Shown here: piece after piece, positions 321-35,265 of the stretch | How the letters are laid out: each line of letters opens with the position of its first letter | Numbering within the stretch: the stretch's first letter is position 1 | IMG/VR virus record: IMGVR_UViG_2579778866_000006 | DNA: 35,265 nt | Source of the DNA: a virus | Lineage: Duplodnaviria > Heunggongvirae > Uroviricota > Caudoviricetes | Direction: 5' to 3' (one strand) | Program-made: the position numbers and the translations under genes | Notes under the pieces: generated by a model | What the model saw: only the letters and a program-made list of their open reading frames with translations | The model's database searches: none | What the model was told of the DNA's origin: nothing

Positions 321-729
321 TGTCTGTGAGATAGGGTGCCGTTTCGACCAACCTTAGCAACCGATTGACGGGGGATTACTCCCCCGTCGCGGTTATCTTA
401 CTTATTACATAGTAAGAATGCCGCAATTTCCGTGCCAGCAAACCTGAATCGTAACTCGCACGGTGATGTGTGGAGGATCCAGATTATCGCTACCGCAGTT
501 ATGCAAAGTAACAGGGTTTTTAACGGAATTTGCGTCATAACGCTTGTCTCCTGAGAGGAGAGGCGCTAACCTTCTACTTGCGAAGGTAAGAAGTGTTAGG
601 GCCTCGGTTAAACAGAAATGTTTTCCGGGGCCTTTCCACATCTGGCCTTCGGGTATTCCCTCCGACCATCAGCCGAAAGGCACCCGCGCGTAATCTATCG
701 CTTTTTTGTTACTCCGGCAATTCTGCCTG

Positions 730-23795: not shown

Positions 23796-23815
23796 TGGGG
23801 CTGTCCTTTTTACCA
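23781..23815. terminator. Bidirectional terminator shared by convergent Q and the 175-aa cargo gene
   Basis: Stem cagcccc / ggggctg with 5-nt loop, flanked by an A-run and a T-run. Confidence 0.65.
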
Positions 23816-24335
23816 GAGTTGAACCATTTTCTGGGTGCCGTCAGGCTTGAGATTATCAATTTCAGAGAGAACGTAATATTGAATGGCTTCACAAACGGTG
23901 GTGTATGGTGAATTACCTTCTTTAAGTGGCACGATATTATTATTAACGCGAACCTGTATTTCATCGTTATACATTGCGATCGAAAGAGGAGTATGCACGA
24001 AGGCGACTTCGCCAGGTGTGTCGTCAACCACTGTCTCAATGCTGAAAATCAGTTTTCGCTCATCATTGCCGCCCCTTGCTTTGGGGGTAGCGGCAGGAAT
24101 CTGAGATAAAGGCATTCTGCGAAACCCTTCAGCCGTTTCCAGTCCGCATGAAACGTAATGCTGGCGATTACCGTCGCTATCCGTCCATGTCTGTGATGGC
24201 AGCTCCAGAGAGATTTCATAAGCATCAACAATTCCCTGGGCAATGCGTACAAGCGGGGTCAGGTCTTCATTGCGGCGAAAACTCTCCTTTACCTGATCTC
24301 GTTTTTCTCGTAACTGCTTGTAATTAATGACCATA
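23810..24335 (-). CDS. Hypothetical protein (175 aa), cargo gene at the Q-proximal accessory hotspot
   Basis: Start placed at the ATG (MVINYKQL) preceded by GGAGG with a 7-nt spacer; no similarity to anything I recognise. Confidence 0.6.
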
Positions 24336-24832
24336 GAACAGCCTCCATTGATTTCTTTGCTCGTATTTTGCACTTATGAAGTGTGGTCGGCAAGGTGCCG
24401 CATCACTGACGCGCTTCGCTTGTCTGCTGCTTCGCCGGGGCATAAAAAATTTATGCCCCGACTCTCCAGCTCCTGTATCAATCAGATAATTTCGCGACGT
24501 CTTCCGACTTATCGCTATCATCGACGGCCAGACTCTTACACAATCCCGCCGCGCTGACTGCATGTTCTCGCCGCCTCAGTGCGATTTTGACGGCCTTACC
24601 TTTCATCCCATCAAATCAGAACACCTTACGTCTTTTTCACGCTCAGCGTGAGCGATACAGCCATTCTGTTGTGTCGCTGCGACATCGTTCAGGGAATGCT
24701 ATTTACCCCCTGAAACGCGGGCTGTTCCCCCGTCACCTGCGCGCAGAAAAAACGCGTTTTTTTGTGCACGCACGGATCCCTGACGGATCCAGCCGCCACG
24801 CGGGCCGGAAGGGCAAAAAGTCGTTCAAAAAA

Positions 24833-24862
24833 ATTGTGCAAATTTGTGCACTATTGTGCATT
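24833..24862. repeat. Three helically phased direct repeats of TTGTGCA (10-bp period)
   Basis: attgtgcaaatttgtgcactattgtgcattg in the non-coding region downstream of the 135-aa gene. Confidence 0.5.
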
Positions 24863-24893: not shown

Positions 24894-25301
24894 TTATCTT
24901 TTATAGCCTTGCCCCTTCCTGGCCAGCGCCCTGATGGCCGGGCGTGCCAACACCATATTTTGGCAATGATGAATTGCCCGGCAAAATTCATCTCTACCCA
25001 TTGGATGCTCAACTGGCAATGTTAAATACAGGTTCCATGCGTCGCCTAAAAGTTGGGCTATCTTTTGTTCTTCAGATGTCAGCAAGCAAGCGGTATCCGT
25101 AAAATAATCATACTTTTCATGTATGTTATTTAACGGTTTTGTCTGTAGTGCAGCCTGAGCTATACGGTATGCCTGAAGCATACGGGCGTCGTTGATATCC
25201 ATTCCGAACGGAATTTCTGATGATTGTGACTCTGCATCTTCAAGCCTGGCAATTTCTTTACGTAAGAAGTATTTCAACTCTTGTTTCTGTTTTCTGTTCA
25301 T
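24894..25301 (-). CDS. Hypothetical protein (135 aa), cargo gene
   Basis: ORF on the same strand as A/parMR, with a ribosome-binding site; followed by a terminator-like hairpin; no recognisable domain. Confidence 0.55.
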   Translation of the reverse strand: MNRKQKQELKYFLRKEIARLEDAESQSSEIPFGMDINDARMLQAYRIAQAALQTKPLNNIHEKYDYFTDTACLLTSEEQKIAQLLGDAWNLYLTLPVEHPMGRDEFCRAIHHCQNMVLARPAIRALARKGQGYKR

Positions 25302-25369: not shown

Positions 25370-25394
25370 TCATCAGGGCGGATGCGCCCTGATG
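25370..25394 (-). terminator. Hairpin directly downstream of the parR-like gene
   Basis: Stem catcagggcg / cgccctgatg with 3-nt loop; weak T-tract. Confidence 0.4.
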
Positions 25395-25399
25395 TTGTG

Positions 25400-25711
25400 T
25401 TATTCGGGAAATAACGCCCGGATATTTCCGGCCATCTGACTGGTTATCTGTGCGGTTGATACTGGCTGTGACGCGGGGCATTCTGTCCTGGTTTGTGTCA
25501 CTGATAACGCCTCATCGTCAGCCCATGCAGCCAGTCGGTAAGCCTCTGCCGGATTCATTTTCAGAAGTGCCAGCCCGGCCAGAAAAGCCACGCGTTGGCC
25601 GCTTTTGCGGGCTTCTGGTGTAAGGCTGTCCAGCCAGGCGCATGCTTCGCTTTCGTTCTTGACGGCCGCAGGCTTCAGATAGAAACTTATCCGTCTGGTT
25701 GGTGTCGTCAT
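25400..25711 (-). CDS. ParR-like small protein downstream of parM (putative centromere-binding adaptor)
   Basis: ATG (MTTPTRR) lies 4 nt after the parM stop, with AGGAG overlapping that stop; about 103 aa. Assignment rests on position and size only. Confidence 0.45.
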   Translation of the reverse strand: MTTPTRRISFYLKPAAVKNESEACAWLDSLTPEARKSGQRVAFLAGLALLKMNPAEAYRLAAWADDEALSVTQTRTECPASQPVSTAQITSQMAGNIRALFPE

Positions 25712-25715
25712 TGGT

Positions 25716-26675
25716 TTACTCCTTGTCCATTGCGTACAGCCCATTAACCAGAGCAAACTGTGGCACCCCGTCCGCGATGAAAGTCGCATTAACTCCGCAG
25801 GCTTCGCGGATAGCGGGTGCCACAATCTCCGTCCCGCCACCGACAACCATCACCCGCCCGTAACCCGAAAAACCCGCCAGCGCGCGGATCACGCGTTGTT
25901 TCAGTGTTTCTTCCTTTTCACGAATAACCGCCATCAGGCTGGCGTAATGCGCGTCATTGTGGATGTGCTGGCGCAGCCAGGCTTCATCATGGCGATGTTC
26001 GATAATGGTATTGGCGATGTGGTGACTGGTGCGCATACCGTTAGTGGCCATCACCGACAGTACGGCATCGGCCATCAGAGAAACGCCTACGTGTGGATCG
26101 CAAAACACCTGGCTGATACCTGCCAGTTGCCCCTGAACCTTTGCCACATCCAGCGTGGTTCCGCCCAAATCCACAATCAGCAGGGATTCAAACGGACTCA
26201 TGTCAGCCAGTGCTTTAAAGCCAGCCGGAATAGATTCAGGCATAACCCGCACGTTACGGATAGTGAATGCCTCGCCGTTCTGGTACTCCACCGGGCGCAT
26301 AACGTTCGCTTTTTTGCGGTTGATGTTGGCCATGTCCGGCTGTGCGTTTGTGTCGAAATACTCGCTCAGTGGCAGGGTGACAACCACATCCACCTCCTGT
26401 GGCGTGATGCCTGATTTGACCAGCGCATGATGAATGGCAATGACATTCACATCGCTGTACTGGTATTGCGTGTCGGTCGTCTGGACAAAGCGATCGCTGA
26501 CCGGATCAAAACCATAGCGCACGCCATCAAGCATGTAGTTCGCGGGCTGCGTGCCACCGAACGGCGCAGACCATTCCGACTTGAAGCTGTTCGGGCTGAT
26601 GGCGTTGCGGCGTTCGCCGTTCTCAGTCCATGCCAGCTTGATGTTGGTGGAGCCGTCGTCGATACAAATTTTCAT
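25716..26675 (-). CDS. parM: ParM/StbA-family actin-like ATPase (plasmid segregation protein homologue)
   Basis: 319 aa; strong resemblance along the whole length to plasmid R1 ParM (IDDGSTNIKL, SPNSFK, QYSDVNV.A.HHAL, ANF/ANV, VMPESIPAG, LLI.DLGGTTLD, FSGY..VMV.GGG, LVNG.Y). Confidence 0.85.
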   Translation of the reverse strand: MKICIDDGSTNIKLAWTENGERRNAISPNSFKSEWSAPFGGTQPANYMLDGVRYGFDPVSDRFVQTTDTQYQYSDVNVIAIHHALVKSGITPQEVDVVVTLPLSEYFDTNAQPDMANINRKKANVMRPVEYQNGEAFTIRNVRVMPESIPAGFKALADMSPFESLLIVDLGGTTLDVAKVQGQLAGISQVFCDPHVGVSLMADAVLSVMATNGMRTSHHIANTIIEHRHDEAWLRQHIHNDAHYASLMAVIREKEETLKQRVIRALAGFSGYGRVMVVGGGTEIVAPAIREACGVNATFIADGVPQFALVNGLYAMDKE

Positions 26676-26751
26676 GTCGCTTTTCCTTATGTTGATTAAT
26701 TAATCGTTTACAGGATTTTTAAATCCCACTTTTGCCTGTTTTGTGCGCGCT

Positions 26752-29592
26752 TCATATATCGCTGCGCGTTTTTTGCTCATTTACGGGATTCGTGAGTCCC
26801 GTTTCTGTCTGTTTTTTGTTTCCACTGGTCAGGCCACCCCGCAGCAGGTCTGCTTTGCGGCTGGCGCGTTCAGTGGTTTCACTGATTCTCTGTGTGTGCT
26901 CTGCGTCGCGGATGGCGCGCAGCATGTCAGAAAGCACGGTAACGGGTGTTTTCATGGTGTTCTGGTCCTGCTGAAGTGTGGATGCCAGGCGTGCGGCGGC
27001 TTCAGGGTCTGATGCCCCCAGCTGTGCCAGATAGCTGGCGACCGGGTTATGGCGGATCTCCGTGCTGCTTACGCCATGATTACGGCTCAGGCGCTGCCAG
27101 AGCTGCGTGATTCGGCTGTCCGGGCGGGTATCCGGTTTGCGTACAATTTCAAATCCCTGCGGTGCAATGATGCTGCCGTCAACGTACAGACTGCCGCCCC
27201 GTAACAGGTGCTGCATCTGTTGTTCACCGATATGCAGGCCGAGAGATTCAGCAGACTCCCGCCATTCTTTAGCGAGTAATTCGTGGTTATCAGGCAAAGG
27301 CCGCTGCTGTTTACGGCTCTGTGTCCAGCTCTGCATTTCATCACTGCTGTTTTTTGCCTGTTTGTCACGAAGCGAACGCATCAGCGCCCGGCGTTCGTGC
27401 CGTTTCAGTGAGCGCATCCATTCGTTCACTTCAACGCCGTCAGGGAGCTGCGGCCACGGTACTGGCCGTTCTTCCGGCTGTTCTGTCCCGTTGTTGTCCG
27501 TTTCCTGTACACGGGGACAGTTATTGCCACGAGTCCAAGGGGCGGCAGGGCCGCCCTGAAGGTCAAAACCATTTTCGCGGGCGCTGTCTTCCGCTTCCGG
27601 TTTACGTCTTACCAGCTTCCAGTTATCCGGGTGCGTGCACACGCGGGAAGACTCCCCGATGAGCGGCGACCAGATCCCGTAAATCTGTACACTCTGCTCG
27701 CCGTAATCGTTCAGCTCATCTGCGAGGTCGTAGGCGGTGCGAATCAGGTAGTCTTTGCGTGGAACAAGTACGCCACCCTGTTTCTCAATGTAGGTGGCAA
27801 AACATCCGGCATCAGCGGCAGCGAGTACCGCGTCCATTGCGTCATCCTTCAGCCGTTGCGGGCCTTCCGGGTTGCGTGCCATCTGGCTGGCAAGGCGGCG
27901 CAGTTCACGCCACACCTGACGGGAGGGGATACCAAAGAACTGGAACTGGCGGACCCGGTGAAGGCGCGCCCAGCCGATGGCGCGTTCCACGCTCTCGGCC
28001 ATTGATTTTCCGGTTTCGTGGTCAACGCGTGGCTTGCCCGTTTTCGGGTCGATGCCATCCACGGCGCGGCTGTCCAGGTTCTTTCCGATGTAGGTGGCGA
28101 TGTAGCTGGTTGGTGTGCCTTTTGAGCCGTCGACATACTCCACCTTAAAGCGCGGAGTAATATCATTGCCCAGCTCGTGGCGGTCTTCCTGAATGGCAAT
28201 ATCGCGGGTGATGGCCACGATGCTGTCGATTTCTTCCGGATGAGCAAAGACCATCATGTGCCAGTGCACGGTGCCGTCATGGTGAGGCTCCACCGTGCGG
28301 ATGCCATACCAGCGCAGGCCGTCGCGGTTCAGTTTTTTGCGGACCGCCGCAAAAAACGTGTTAACCAGGTAATCGCTGGAGTCGCGCATGGTGGCCCCGT
28401 TCCATTTGGGGTTCGGATGACCGTTCTCCGTTGTTGCGTGGTATTTTGACGGGCAGGTGACAGTCAGAAACACCGCTCTGTCGCCACGGGCTTCGGCCAG
28501 AAGTTCCAGTCCCTTCATGGTGGCCATCATTTCTGCCTTACGGTGGACCGGGTTACTTACTCCCGCGTAATACACCGTCTCGAGATCAATCGTGAACCCG
28601 TCTTCGTTTTCCAGCATGAAACTTTTCAGGAAATCGCGTGTTTTCTCGCGCTGTGCGCGAAACTCGCTTAACGCGTCCTGGCTCAGATAGGGCGATGTTT
28701 TTCTGGAAACCAGACAGGCGGCGCGGAGTTGTTCTTCCCGCCACTCGCAACGTAACAGCCACAGTTTGCGTTTCCACCATTCTGCACAGGTCAGGCGGAG
28801 GATTGCGCCCGGCAGCAGTTCCGTGTCCGGTTCGTTCTTGCGGTCTTTGTCTGTTGTCAGTGCGTCATAATGTGGAGGCATGGCGTGCAGGTGTAACGCC
28901 ATGCGGGCCAGCATCTGATACGCCTTCAGTGCCACCTCCATGGTCAGCTCACCATCGGTCGCGCCAAAGCCATCGCAGAGTTTTTCGAAGGTGCTGCTGA
29001 ACATCGCCGCCGTCATGGTGGCCAGCGTCTGTATCTGGTGCTTGTTGAGCTGCGGCAGGTAAAGCAAATCATCCAGGCGTTCGCGTCCGGCAAGGGAGCG
29101 ATAACCCGGTGTCAGCCAGCGGTGGTCGGTGCGGTCCAGGCGTTCGAATATTTTGCGCAGGGTTCCGCGCGCGTAGCGTTCAGCCTGCCAGCTCTTTTTG
29201 CCTTTCTGGCGATCGGCTTCCTGTTTTTTGCGCAGGAAAGAGAGGTGGCGGCTCAGAGGTTCACGCAGATAAACGGGAAGCACCTTCAGTGTGGCAAAAG
29301 CACGGGCTACCGGGTCTTGTTCTGTTGCCCGGCGCTTACTGATGATGCTCTGAGCCAGCTTTTCACGCTGTCCGGCTTCCTCAAGGGATGCCATGAGTTT
29401 TTTACCCATGGCGGATTGTGCGAAAAAGGCTTCCTCCTTCGCTTCCTGTTCTTCCCGGGCCTTTTTGTCCGCCTCAAGGTAGTAACGGATGGCGCGTTGC
29501 AGGTCGGTTTCAGTTTCCTGCCTGCGCTCCGTAAATCTGGCCGGATCAATGGCTGGTCGTGGTTCATTCCAGCTCCATGCAAACTCACTCAT
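26752..29592 (-). CDS. A: Replication initiation endonuclease A (rolling-circle initiator)
   Basis: Large ORF at the end of the early operon with P2/186 A-family features (HWHMMVF histidine motif, YIATYIGKNLD); start placed at MSEFAWSW, whose ATG overlaps the upstream stop (ATGA). Longer than P2 A. Confidence 0.85.
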   Translation of the reverse strand: MSEFAWSWNEPRPAIDPARFTERRQETETDLQRAIRYYLEADKKAREEQEAKEEAFFAQSAMGKKLMASLEEAGQREKLAQSIISKRRATEQDPVARAFATLKVLPVYLREPLSRHLSFLRKKQEADRQKGKKSWQAERYARGTLRKIFERLDRTDHRWLTPGYRSLAGRERLDDLLYLPQLNKHQIQTLATMTAAMFSSTFEKLCDGFGATDGELTMEVALKAYQMLARMALHLHAMPPHYDALTTDKDRKNEPDTELLPGAILRLTCAEWWKRKLWLLRCEWREEQLRAACLVSRKTSPYLSQDALSEFRAQREKTRDFLKSFMLENEDGFTIDLETVYYAGVSNPVHRKAEMMATMKGLELLAEARGDRAVFLTVTCPSKYHATTENGHPNPKWNGATMRDSSDYLVNTFFAAVRKKLNRDGLRWYGIRTVEPHHDGTVHWHMMVFAHPEEIDSIVAITRDIAIQEDRHELGNDITPRFKVEYVDGSKGTPTSYIATYIGKNLDSRAVDGIDPKTGKPRVDHETGKSMAESVERAIGWARLHRVRQFQFFGIPSRQVWRELRRLASQMARNPEGPQRLKDDAMDAVLAAADAGCFATYIEKQGGVLVPRKDYLIRTAYDLADELNDYGEQSVQIYGIWSPLIGESSRVCTHPDNWKLVRRKPEAEDSARENGFDLQGGPAAPWTRGNNCPRVQETDNNGTEQPEERPVPWPQLPDGVEVNEWMRSLKRHERRALMRSLRDKQAKNSSDEMQSWTQSRKQQRPLPDNHELLAKEWRESAESLGLHIGEQQMQHLLRGGSLYVDGSIIAPQGFEIVRKPDTRPDSRITQLWQRLSRNHGVSSTEIRHNPVASYLAQLGASDPEAAARLASTLQQDQNTMKTPVTVLSDMLRAIRDAEHTQRISETTERASRKADLLRGGLTSGNKKQTETGLTNPVNEQKTRSDI

Positions 29593-29978
29593 GGCTGGTA
29601 TCCCGTCACGCGCTGCCACTCCTGCGAGAAGATGGCGGAAAGGCGGTCAAATTCAGCGGTGTATTCACTCAGCGAGGCACACCCGCCAGCAGTGCGATGC
29701 GCCAGTATTGCCGCAAATACGGAGGCCGGGGAGTCGTAATACGCCAGTAGTGATTCGCCGTGTGGTGTCAGGCAGTGCAACGCCAGCCCGTGTGGTGTGA
29801 AGTCCACGCGGTAGCAGTCGTCTACTGTGAAATAAAGGGTGTCTGCATTCTCCGGTTTTGTGGTGCGTGCTCTGTTGTCACGACCACGGATGTAGAGATC
29901 AAATAATCCCTGAAGAACGGGAGCCAGACGGGTGTCCTGTGTGCGCACCCATCTTGTGAAGTCATGAGCGTCAATCAT
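29589..29978 (-). CDS. Hypothetical early protein (129 aa)
   Basis: ORF translationally coupled to A (ATGA overlap). Confidence 0.6.
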   Translation of the reverse strand: MIDAHDFTRWVRTQDTRLAPVLQGLFDLYIRGRDNRARTTKPENADTLYFTVDDCYRVDFTPHGLALHCLTPHGESLLAYYDSPASVFAAILAHRTAGGCASLSEYTAEFDRLSAIFSQEWQRVTGYQP

Positions 29979-30050
29979 GCTGCAATTCTCTTTACTACAG
30001 ATGTGCGAAGGCCTCCCGCCGCAAGGTGCAGGAAAGGCCCGGAACAGGAA

Positions 30051-30281
30051 TTAATGGAGTTTGTTTTGCTGCTGGAAGAGCTGCTGAAGCTCGCGCAGAT
30101 CATCCGCCAGATAGCTGAAAACAGCGGATGAGTAGAGGTTTGAAAGTTCGCAGCTACGCTCATGCAGCATATTGATGTGCATGATTTTAGCGACGCGGAA
30201 TGCGCGGGAAAGTCTGCGGTTGATTTCAGTCTGGATGTGACGACGCTCCGCGATAGCGCGGTGCTGTTTGCGGTCTGCCAT
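30051..30281 (-). CDS. Hypothetical early protein (76 aa)
   Basis: ATG preceded by AAAGAGG; basic helical protein. Confidence 0.55.
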   Translation of the reverse strand: MADRKQHRAIAERRHIQTEINRRLSRAFRVAKIMHINMLHERSCELSNLYSSAVFSYLADDLRELQQLFQQQNKLH

Positions 30282-30458
30282 GGTGTGGCCTCTTTGGTTG
30301 TAAGTTTTGAAAACTCACCATCCAGAGCTGCGAAACAGTGGGTGGCGAGACGTACGAGGTTCGCAGTACCGGCAACCAAAGAACCCGGCCCGACCGAAGT
30401 CGGCCCCGTACGCCCCGCCATAATTCGTGTGCGAAAAAGACGTGGCAATACAGTACGC

Positions 30459-30483
30459 ACAAAAAAACCGCTGGCGCGGTTGT
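30459..30483 (-). terminator. Intrinsic terminator-like hairpin inside the early operon
   Basis: On the minus strand: stem aaccgc / gcggtt (loop gcca) followed by TTTTTTT. Confidence 0.5.
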
Positions 30484-30601
30484 GCGCTTTGGTTGTCAGC
30501 AGGCTGCGAAACCCGGCACCCGTTTTATGAGGTGCAGCGGAAATGTAACCTGACTGATTGCGGCATGGCAAGCGGTTTTTTTGTGTGTACATGATGCTCA
30601 T

Positions 30602-33484: not shown

Positions 33485-33811
33485 TCATGCAGCAAAATTA
33501 AGAAAGCCTAATCCCAAATCTTCCGCCAGCTTCTTGGCTTTCTTAAGCCAGTGGTTGCGCCAATCTTTACGCTCAGGAGGAAGCTGTTTCGTTGCGTCAT
33601 AGACCATTTCGAGCCACTCATTCCAAAGGATGAGAAGACGGCGCGAACTCCCTTCCTCGCCTAAAACCTCGCGCTCAGTAGTTAGAGGGATGAGTCGACG
33701 CTCTACCAACTTTCTTACGGCTGATTCGGTCTTACCTGTGCGGCGGGAAAACTCATCGACGGTGATGGGGTCTGGGATCTTAAACAATGCCCTCAATAGT
33801 TCTTCATTCAT
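33485..33811 (-). CDS. cox: Cox-like excisionase / early regulator
   Basis: Divergent from the C repressor; from the internal Met (MNEELLRALF...) the protein shows a P2 Cox-like HTH (ESAVRKLVERRLIPL) and tryptophan-rich C-terminal part. Confidence 0.6.
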   Translation of the reverse strand: MNEELLRALFKIPDPITVDEFSRRTGKTESAVRKLVERRLIPLTTEREVLGEEGSSRRLLILWNEWLEMVYDATKQLPPERKDWRNHWLKKAKKLAEDLGLGFLNFAA

Positions 33812-33880
33812 GTGATAATCTCCCTGTTTGGGGTATTTCTTGCGACGGATGCCCCAAATCAAACTCATTTGTATAAACAT

Positions 33881-33891: not shown

Positions 33892-34209
33892 TTGGAGAAT
33901 TGCAACATGCGTATGACTATTGGAGAGCGCATAAAAATCATGCGTGAAAGCGAGAGACTTACTAGCCTCCCGGATACAGCAAAAATGCTTGGTTTAAACC
34001 GTGATGCTCTGTGGAGATATGAAAGCGGTAAAACCATCCCTAATGCTGAAGTAATTGAGCAAATACTAAACAACCCCAGATTTGAGAAATATGCGTTGTG
34101 GTTTATGACTGGAAAAATTGCGCCTGAATCCGGGCAGATAGCTCCGGCTCTCGCACACTATGGGCAAGAGCCAACGGACTTACCCCCATCCGAAAAGAAA
34201 ATTGGTTAA
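33892..34209 (+). CDS. C: Immunity repressor C
   Basis: Strong match to P2 repressor C, including the near-identical C-terminal block FMTGKIAPESGQIAPALAHYGQ (P2: FMTNQIAPESGQIAPALAHFGQ). Confidence 0.9.
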   Translation: MENCNMRMTIGERIKIMRESERLTSLPDTAKMLGLNRDALWRYESGKTIPNAEVIEQILNNPRFEKYALWFMTGKIAPESGQIAPALAHYGQEPTDLPPSEKKIG

Positions 34210-34242: not shown

Positions 34243-35265
34243 ATGTCTTTCCTCGTTTCACCGGAGGGCTTGCCAATGGCAATTAAAGCGCTCGATGGTG
34301 GACGGTATAAAGTGGATGTTAGACCGCGTGGCCGAAGTGGACGTCGGATTCAGCGGATTTTTAAGAAAAAGGCAGATGCAGTGGCCTTTGAGCGTTATGT
34401 TCTCAGCCACATGCACGATAAGGAATGGCTTGAAAAGCCAACAGAGCAACGTCATCTCTCAGATCTGCTTCCGTTATGGTGGGAATTGGGTGGACGCAAT
34501 AAGCCATATGCTAACGGCGTTCTAACCAGGTTGAAAAAAATCATCAAAGAAATGAATGATCCAAGGGTTAGCCAGATTAATGCTCGTTTCATGGCCGCTT
34601 ATCGAAGCTCCCGTTTATCCTTGGGAGTAAAAGAGTCTACTGTTCGGCGTGATGAGTCGGATCTCGGAGGAATGTTTACACTCCTGACAAATGCTGGGGA
34701 ATTTCACGGAGAAAATCCGCTCCGCGCCCTCCCCTCTTTGAAACGAAAATCACCCGAAATGACGTATCTCACCACGGAAGAAATCGCCAAATTACTGGAT
34801 GCAGTAAGCGGTGATGCCCGGCGGATTACGCTACTTTGTCTCAGTACTGGTGCGAGATGGGGAGAGGCGAAAAATCTGCGCGCGGAACACATCATCAATA
34901 ACCGCGTGACGTTTAACAAAACTAAAAACGGAAAAGTTCGAATTATTCCTGTCTCTGATGAAGTTGTTAGCGAGATCAAAACAAAGAAATCCGGCCTTTT
35001 GTTTGACGTCAATTATGAGGAATATCGCAAGGTGCTCCGCAGTGTTAAGCCTGACCTACCAAAAGGACAGGCTGTACATGTTCTACGCCATACCTTTGCA
35101 GCTCACTTTATGATTAATGGAGGAAATATACTTACGCTCCAGCGAATTATGGGGCACGCCACGATCCAGCAAACTATGACCTATGCACACCTCGCTCCTG
35201 ATTTCCTCCAGGATGCAATTTCACTTAATCCGTTAAAAGGAGGCATCCACATTTCATCCACATAA
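34243..35265 (+). CDS. int: Tyrosine integrase (P2 Int family)
   Basis: 340 aa; catalytic region with conserved R...HxxRHT...Y arrangement (LRHTFAAHFMINGGNILTLQRIMGHATIQQTMTYAHL); downstream of C as in P2. Confidence 0.9.
   Translation: MSFLVSPEGLPMAIKALDGGRYKVDVRPRGRSGRRIQRIFKKKADAVAFERYVLSHMHDKEWLEKPTEQRHLSDLLPLWWELGGRNKPYANGVLTRLKKIIKEMNDPRVSQINARFMAAYRSSRLSLGVKESTVRRDESDLGGMFTLLTNAGEFHGENPLRALPSLKRKSPEMTYLTTEEIAKLLDAVSGDARRITLLCLSTGARWGEAKNLRAEHIINNRVTFNKTKNGKVRIIPVSDEVVSEIKTKKSGLLFDVNYEEYRKVLRSVKPDLPKGQAVHVLRHTFAAHFMINGGNILTLQRIMGHATIQQTMTYAHLAPDFLQDAISLNPLKGGIHISST

Follow-up and report, generated by a model that had tools for sequence, protein, structure and literature searches.

The DNA analysed here, a 35,265-nucleotide viral sequence (IMG/VR record IMGVR_UViG_2579778866_000006, Caudoviricetes; hereafter the window), is a P88-like prophage (genus Xuanwuvirus, Peduoviridae) that carries, at positions 25400 to 26675, two genes related to the actin-type partition system of plasmid R1. 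P2-like phages are textbook integrating temperate phages, which replicate by the rolling-circle mode and package their DNA from monomeric circles. On the basis of protein identity, conservation and synteny we propose, with a probability of roughly 0.55, that the two genes, parM and parR (together parMR), form a complete, functional type II (ParM/ParR) segregation module that is part of the backbone of P88-like and related P2-like phages and would act on circular extrachromosomal phage DNA.

The product of parM (25716-26675 (-)) is a 319-aa actin-fold partition ATPase. The initial annotation of the window, made from the letters alone, had called it a homologue of R1 ParM, and profile searches bear this out: the protein matches the Pfam domains StbA_N (E = 1.8e-82, residues 1-157) and PF21523, the ParM C-terminal domain (E = 5.6e-68, residues 159-316), as well as PHROG 691, 'partition protein' (9e-90). 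R1 ParM itself (PDB 1mwk) aligns with the window protein over the full length (E = 3.2e-92, 46% identity over 315 residues), and the phosphate- and adenosine-binding motifs (IDDGSTNIK, DLGGTTLD and GGG) are preserved.

The second gene, parR (25400-25711 (-)), encodes a 103-aa ribbon-helix-helix (RHH) centromere-binding adaptor. It starts 5 nt past the parM stop, its AAGGAG Shine-Dalgarno sequence overlaps the parM 3' end, and its translation is probably coupled to that of parM. The ATG at 25711, used by all annotated relatives, was taken as the start codon; the open reading frame (ORF) lister had given a longer 148-aa ORF beginning with TTG. A small coupled gene of ParR size had also been noted initially, and its identity is now supplied by matches to the Pfam family Plasmid_stab_B, that is, the StbB/ParR family (E = 1.7e-24), and to PHROG 2515 (1.5e-57). 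As a single sequence ParR found no match in the PDB; a profile built from ten ParR relatives matches ParR of plasmid pB171 (2jd3, 'StbB protein') with E = 9.6e-14 over residues 8-130, nearly the whole chain.

In ParR proteins the N-terminus is an RHH DNA-binding domain and a C-terminal peptide binds ParM. In an alignment of phage, integrative and conjugative element (ICE) and plasmid sequences the N-terminal strand RRISFYLKP is kept, with R6, F10, Y11, L12, P14, R35, R40, A42, A45, G46, A48 and L49 invariant. At the other end, N96 and F101 of the motif N-x-x-x-(L/M/F)-F, which aligns with the C-terminus of 2jd3, are likewise invariant; the conserved tail may also be written N-x-x-x-(L/F)-F-P. 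The linker between the two conserved parts is hypervariable. Retention of both functional ends argues for a protein that would serve as a working adaptor. A separate observation concerns allelic variation: in E. coli and E. albertii prophages ParR occurs as at least four mosaic allele types, which differ mainly in the linker, while parM stays 98-99% identical; the recombination breakpoints lie within the gene, at about codon 18 and beyond (25400-25660).

The module is found in all P88-like phage records, and its DNA is 95-98% identical to that of P88, P88_4B11, PhiSM and others. The RefSeq record of P88 has a 'plasmid segregation protein ParM' and a 'partition protein' annotated between the replication endonuclease and portal genes. 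Directly upstream of parM in the window, and co-oriented with it, is gene A (26752-29619 (-)), encoding the rolling-circle replication endonuclease (Pfam Phage_GPA, E = 1.2e-130). The gap between the end of A and the start of parM measures 76 nt, in line with the 75 bp or so first estimated. The true start of A probably lies downstream of the listed GTG at 29619, near 29574-29592, because relatives annotate genes of 2823 and 2841 nt.

The initial annotation had proposed a survey of how often the module occurs in P2-like prophages. Of 5426 complete E. coli genomes, 1307 have it, pathogenic lineages among them; the resulting 24% is a proportion of complete E. coli genomes, since a count of all P2-like prophages by a distant terminase search proved unreliable. 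There are up to three copies per genome, nearly always adjoining a gene annotated as 'replication endonuclease'. The copies occupy 1453 chromosomal places and 2 plasmid places, and the window holds int (34243-35265), a C-type helix-turn-helix repressor gene (33892-34209) and cox (33485-33880), so the low-copy extrachromosomal carriage usual for type II partition systems is not what these genomes display. An integrative P2-like prophage with int and C was correctly recognised at the outset. The nearest genomic match of the window is an integrated prophage adjoining pdxB, and the close relative PhiSM has been shown experimentally to lysogenise K-12 via integration at pdxB (PMC6456863).

More distant relatives were reached by protein search and contig look-ups, a contig scan with a single protein having given only close ones. 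P2-like prophages of Plesiomonas, Hafnia, Serratia and Enterobacter encode ParM proteins with 62%, 62%, 58% and 54% identity, respectively, to that of the window, and in all four the order is gpA, parM, a Plasmid_stab_B gene (parR), a variable stretch and the portal gene; in Hafnia and Enterobacter one or two extra genes lie between A and parM. Homologues of 48-50% identity come from an ICE and an integrated plasmid. A ParM homologue occurs in at least 5000 records of the plasmid collection; among the matches listed, and leaving prophage copies aside, all fall below 60% identity, the best reaching 52%. In a neighbour-joining tree the ParMs of P88, Plesiomonas and Hafnia form a clade with 100/100 bootstrap support, as do those of Serratia and Enterobacter. 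The union of the two subclades obtains only 46/100, which is compatible with one acquisition or two; a single origin of all prophage ParMs was set aside for want of support. Over 44 P88-like allele pairs, omega (dN/dS) of parM is about 0.065, which denotes strong purifying selection.

Judged by these comparisons, parMR is an old backbone component under selection rather than recently captured plasmid DNA. Both terms first applied to the module are at odds with the data: it is not 'unexpected cargo', being conserved in the P88-like backbone and placed between gpA and portal in more distant P2-like prophages too, and the idea of captured plasmid DNA sits ill with the distance of plasmid ParMs, with synteny maintained down to 54% identity and with the low omega. 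The initial annotation had named, as grounds for abandoning its view, a module that is common and conserved in the lineage and has a known function; the former we find, while no known function goes with it.

Clusters of truncated ParM were also encountered: P0006, P0010 and P0017 comprise proteins of 188-261 aa, with 414-649 members each, some on megabase contigs. They suggest recurrent parM pseudogenisation in some clonal E. coli lineages.

Upstream of parM the repeat finder detected no tandem iteron array, as had been observed on first reading. It did detect a 42-nt direct repeat, with one copy in the intergenic gap and the other in the last codons of A. The core of the repeat is a 16-bp palindromic box, GGGAY-N6-AYCCC, present in two copies 73 bp apart. 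Box A (GGGACTCACGAATCCC, 26785-26800 (-)), a candidate ParR site, lies at -125 from the parM ATG, within the last codons of gene A; box B (GGGATTTAAAAATCCT, 26712-26727 (-)) lies at -52. The last base of box B is degenerate in the window, and most relatives have GGGATTTCAGAATCCC or GGGATTTAAAAATCCC. Every P88-like locus shows this two-box layout with a spacing of 72-73 bp, and so do Plesiomonas (boxes at -131 and -59) and Hafnia (boxes at -128 and -55).

The sequences around the boxes do not align among these three lineages, and the distal box stands in three different coding contexts. In Hafnia it falls within a separate 167-aa ORF that divides A from parM, which implies that the boxes are linked to parM rather than to A. 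They are also rare: in P88 the pattern is matched by boxes A and B and nowhere else in the genome (35.8 kb), and the 17-kb Hafnia locus has only two GGGAT-N6-ATCCC matches at up to one mismatch (0.41 expected). In the window the boxes account for two of three such matches. Extra matches in E. albertii and Plesiomonas fall within the portal and terminase genes and have no conserved counterpart in the window; we treated them as chance. Among the E. coli alleles the DNA-reading strand of ParR and the half-sites of the boxes are all alike. We propose boxes A and B as a candidate ParR operator and centromere, each forming half of a putative parC. A centromere of few repeats has a precedent in srpC, which was validated with only four 13-bp repeats (PMC4489591). 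A plasmid-type relative of the module has a classical 11-bp iteron array upstream of parM.

As intrinsic terminators the boxes were rejected: their antisense strand is terminator-like in E. coli and Serratia, and the T-tract is absent in Plesiomonas and Hafnia. A further conserved motif, ATTAATCAA (26692-26700 (-)), sits between box B and the parM ribosome-binding site; it occupies an equivalent position in the prophages of E. coli, Plesiomonas and Hafnia, the flanks of which otherwise do not align, and is possibly a weak -10 element or factor site.

The initial annotation had pointed to iteron-like TTGTGCA repeats downstream of the module as a potential centromere. The repeats are real: three TGCACAA heptamers with 10-bp spacing lie at 24834-24860 (-), beside the probable cos (~24790-24815). 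The heptamer is not enriched over the window as a whole. The triple is present in every P88-like locus, whichever morons adjoin it, and is found some 20-45 bp from the end junction of the linear P88_4B11 record. In Enterobacter phage phiT5282H, the A-to-portal interval of which encodes an AAA ATPase and an S8 peptidase and is devoid of parMR, the triple is almost unchanged within flanks only about 75% identical. Adjacent to genome ends and conserved where parMR is missing, the triple is ruled out as parC. On this comparative evidence the TGCACAA repeats belong to cos and not to par; the heptamers are possibly a terminase or host-factor site.

Between A and parM, a consensus scan of the window, Plesiomonas and Hafnia detected neither a sigma-70-like promoter nor a sense-strand terminator; in Serratia and Enterobacter sigma-70 promoter matches overlap the start codon. 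Because no promoter of its own and no sense terminator are recognised between A and parM, parMR is probably co-transcribed with gene A in the early operon and silent in the repressed lysogen. A search for the P2 ori nick-site sequence gave no match with up to three mismatches allowed, and ori was not located.

From the protein identities, conservation, synteny, chromosomal location and conserved boxes we infer how the boxes are bound, when the genes are expressed and which cargo is moved. Transcription of parMR would accompany that of the early operon once the phage has infected or been induced, and would be off in the repressed lysogen. Dimers of ParR would then bind the two boxes upstream of parM, which are 73 bp or about seven helical turns apart, and so mark each phage circle. 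By the R1 paradigm, the conserved C-terminal tail of ParR would capture ParM-ATP filaments, and pairs of phage circles would be pushed apart. The benefit would fall in the extrachromosomal phase: replicating monomeric circles would be spread out or placed so that they replicate and are packaged efficiently, and each daughter cell would receive a copy if division preceded integration or lysis. The model agrees with experimental findings on two systems of normally integrated elements, AlpAC of the Corynebacterium glutamicum prophage CGP3 and SrpMRC of the SXT/R391 ICEs.

Several points weigh against the proposal. The sizeable clusters of truncated parM show that the gene is dispensable for the host, and P2, 186 and phiT5282H do without parMR, so that any role in replication or packaging must be auxiliary and not essential. 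The Serratia/Enterobacter subclade has other repeats, with GGGAAC, and its ParR strand reads RKISFYL, not RRISFYL. The boxes are few, unlike the 10-iteron parC of R1, and palindromes of this kind could equally be an RNA hairpin (sense RNA fold z = -2.06) or a target of some other protein. The promoter scan being crude, a weak or ParR-regulated promoter overlapping box B, which would allow expression in the lysogen, may be present. Finally, no functional study of a P88-type parMR was found in the literature searched, where word-start matching gave mostly noise.

In P2 lysogens gene A is repressed by C, and this bears on an alternative that we regard as unlikely, namely that P88-like phages are facultative phage-plasmids. 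According to this alternative, ParMRC, replication by gpA and a hok/sok-like locus (below) would let an unintegrated phage persist as a low-copy circle, for example if attB is missing or already taken, or if the stage before integration is prolonged. One record fits: NZ_CP148288.1, a 34,461-bp circle entered as a 'plasmid' of E. coli Z1323PEC0009, holds a complete P88-like genome with int, C, cox, A, parMR, the structural genes and hok. That circle could, however, be excised, replicating phage DNA after spontaneous induction, and the identical module is integrated in another strain. Carriage of a Hok/Gef ORF with a sok-like RNA and the 47.5% identity of the window ParM to that of the phage-plasmid D6 are also in favour. 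Opposed to them are the small number of plasmid places in the complete E. coli genomes, the nature of the other 'plasmid' matches that were inspected or of outlying size (a chimeric plasmid, a linear phage fragment and records of 228 kb-1.4 Mb), the integrated state of PhiSM lysogens (PMC6456863) and the want of a plasmid replicon active in lysogens if C represses gene A. With one 34.5-kb circular record set against about 1450 chromosomal copies, the episomal lifestyle hinted at in the initial annotation is a weak suggestion. The bolder claim, that these phages segregate as low-copy circles for many generations before or instead of integrating, we hold to be quite unlikely; if it were true, roughly one E. 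coli strain in four would harbour a phage whose episomal phase is hidden. On a milder reading the module may define a minimal type II centromere of a kind not recognised before, in which two palindromes seven helical turns apart organise the rolling-circle replication of the phage.

The position of parMR after gpA in every lineage examined invites another explanation, to which we likewise give little credence: the main task of ParM and ParR might be to help gpA, the HUH rolling-circle endonuclease, either to nick DNA or to reach a cellular site to which they recruit it. This would explain why the module invariably follows gene A directly. There are precedents, in that ParM and ParR of plasmid R1 bind TraI, an HUH relaxase whose nicking they stimulate, while TraI stimulates the ParM ATPase (PMC4949242), and in that AlpAC is needed for efficient replication of CGP3, which is lowered by its loss (PMC4446434). 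Yet gpA is very different from TraI, and the genes that intervene between A and parM in Hafnia and Enterobacter leave the repeats with parM; moreover, a cofactor role is compatible with the segregation model rather than exclusive of it. Less credence still attaches to a function in the lysogen, with ParMR expressed from the integrated prophage and acting on a chromosomal locus, or against related phages and plasmids with similar centromeres (exclusion or incompatibility). The neighbourhood of the variable moron and defence slot known from P2-like phages, the mosaic ParR alleles with their hypervariable linker and the presence of up to three copies per genome could all be read in this way. The module is constant, however, and only the adjoining slot varies; ParR strand and box half-sites, being the same in all E. 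coli alleles, give no sign of specificity diversification, the strands and iterons of plasmid ParRs differ, and no promoter of its own was detected by the scan. Next to no credence is left for recently captured plasmid DNA or decaying, functionless cargo. That the ParM family is otherwise typical of plasmids and that truncated variants exist are the points in its favour; the gulf separating the window ParM from plasmid ParMs among the matches listed, the synteny across several genera, the purifying selection and the conservation of both functional ends of ParR effectively refute it, as far as comparative data go.

Downstream, the conserved module ends at a 10-bp GC-rich hairpin just past the parR stop (25371-25394 (-)), where the variable moron slot starts; homology with other P88-like phages breaks at 25374-25400, right after parR. 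Between parR and the portal gene the window has two ORFs of unknown function, 23810-24373 (-) (187 aa, PHROG 5091) and 24894-25301 (-) (135 aa, PHROG 13916/660). In relatives the slot is filled by other genes, for example for a ClpX-type zinc-finger protein, Ead/Ea22-like proteins, HicAB or a KAP NTPase. The notion that parMR is itself a defence system of the P2 A-to-cos hotspot was rejected: no PADLOC model matches ParM or ParR, and the variable slot begins only after parR.

Elsewhere in the window, a hok/sok-type type I toxin-antitoxin locus occupies 398-685 (-), beside ogr. It consists of a 46-aa Hok/Gef ORF (398-538; Pfam HOK_GEF, 2.5e-8) and a sok-like RNA (527-685; Rfam RF01794, 47.4 bits, E = 3e-9, under the gathering score of 59). 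The prophage thus holds homologues of both classical stability loci of plasmid R1, parMRC and hok/sok. In the early region, at 30338-30535 (-), a C4 antisense RNA (Rfam, 84.5 bits) lies beside an isrK Hfq-binding RNA (65.9 bits), and the two overlap an ORF with a Phage_ASH domain (29975-30601); the pair constitutes a P1/P7-type antisense immunity element within a P2-like prophage. Outside E. coli, the Salmonella IncHI2 plasmid NZ_CP110658.1 includes, at 99744-140700 and beside IS26, a chromosomal block (ffh, rpsP, trmD ... pheA) with a SopE-encoding P88-like prophage, the result of either chromosome-to-plasmid capture or misassembly.

Public records already carry annotations of parMR, and systems of this kind are well known. 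What appear to be undescribed in the literature searched are the depth and breadth of its conservation in P2-like phages, the assignment of the TGCACAA repeats to cos and the two-box centromere candidate. That one large branch of P2-like phages keeps a canonical actin-type segregation machine under purifying selection implies that the extrachromosomal phase of P88-like phages needs active DNA positioning. Establishing whether this is so would extend the findings on AlpAC and SrpMRC to the best-studied bacterial host, and could reveal an unusually small ParR centromere. There is also a practical consequence: chromosomal ParM/ParR annotations should not be taken for plasmid remnants, and plasmid-detection tools based on par genes will misfire on P88-like prophages.

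Among known systems, ParMRC of R1 (parA/stb) and ParMR of pB171 are the nearest in their components. In the type II paradigm, ATP-dependent, dynamically unstable ParM filaments push ParR/parC complexes apart, and parC overlaps the par promoter. The window shares with these plasmids a homologous ATPase and RHH adaptor, the order parM then parR, the C-terminal tail of ParR and cis repeats directly upstream. It differs in that the module resides in an integrating phage and not in a low-copy plasmid, in having two 16-bp palindromes 73 bp apart in place of a tandem array of 11-bp iterons, in lacking a recognisable promoter in the repeat region and in its shorter ParR (103 aa). The phage-plasmid D6 resembles the window as a temperate enterobacterial phage with a ParM/StbA homologue, but D6 is a plasmid prophage unrelated to P2, and its ParM is no closer to that of the window than are plasmid ParMs.

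SrpMRC stabilises the excised form of SXT/R391 ICEs, the replication of which depends on a rolling-circle HUH enzyme; only four short repeats, direct or inverted, make up the SrpMRC centromere, and a toxin-antitoxin stabiliser accompanies the system (PMC4489591). Like parMR of the window, it is a type II system conserved on a normally integrated element; unlike parMR, its SrpM and SrpR are only distantly related to ParM and ParR of R1, and the element that carries it is conjugative and no virus. Since a phage that excises normally goes on to lysis, the selective benefit must differ from that in the SXT/R391 case.

The best functional analogue is AlpAC/alpS of prophage CGP3: its genes are induced early, the adaptor binds upstream of the operon that encodes it, and the system supports the excised circular phage DNA in its replication (PMC4446434, PMC5539076). 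Both here and there an actin-like ATPase and an adaptor are encoded by an integrated prophage, with an adaptor site, a candidate one in the window, upstream of the operon. Gene order and centromere sequence are unrelated. AlpC and AlpA are distant actin-like and adaptor proteins of an actinobacterial element, whereas the window proteins are close homologues of canonical ParM and ParR, carried by an enterobacterial P2-like phage.

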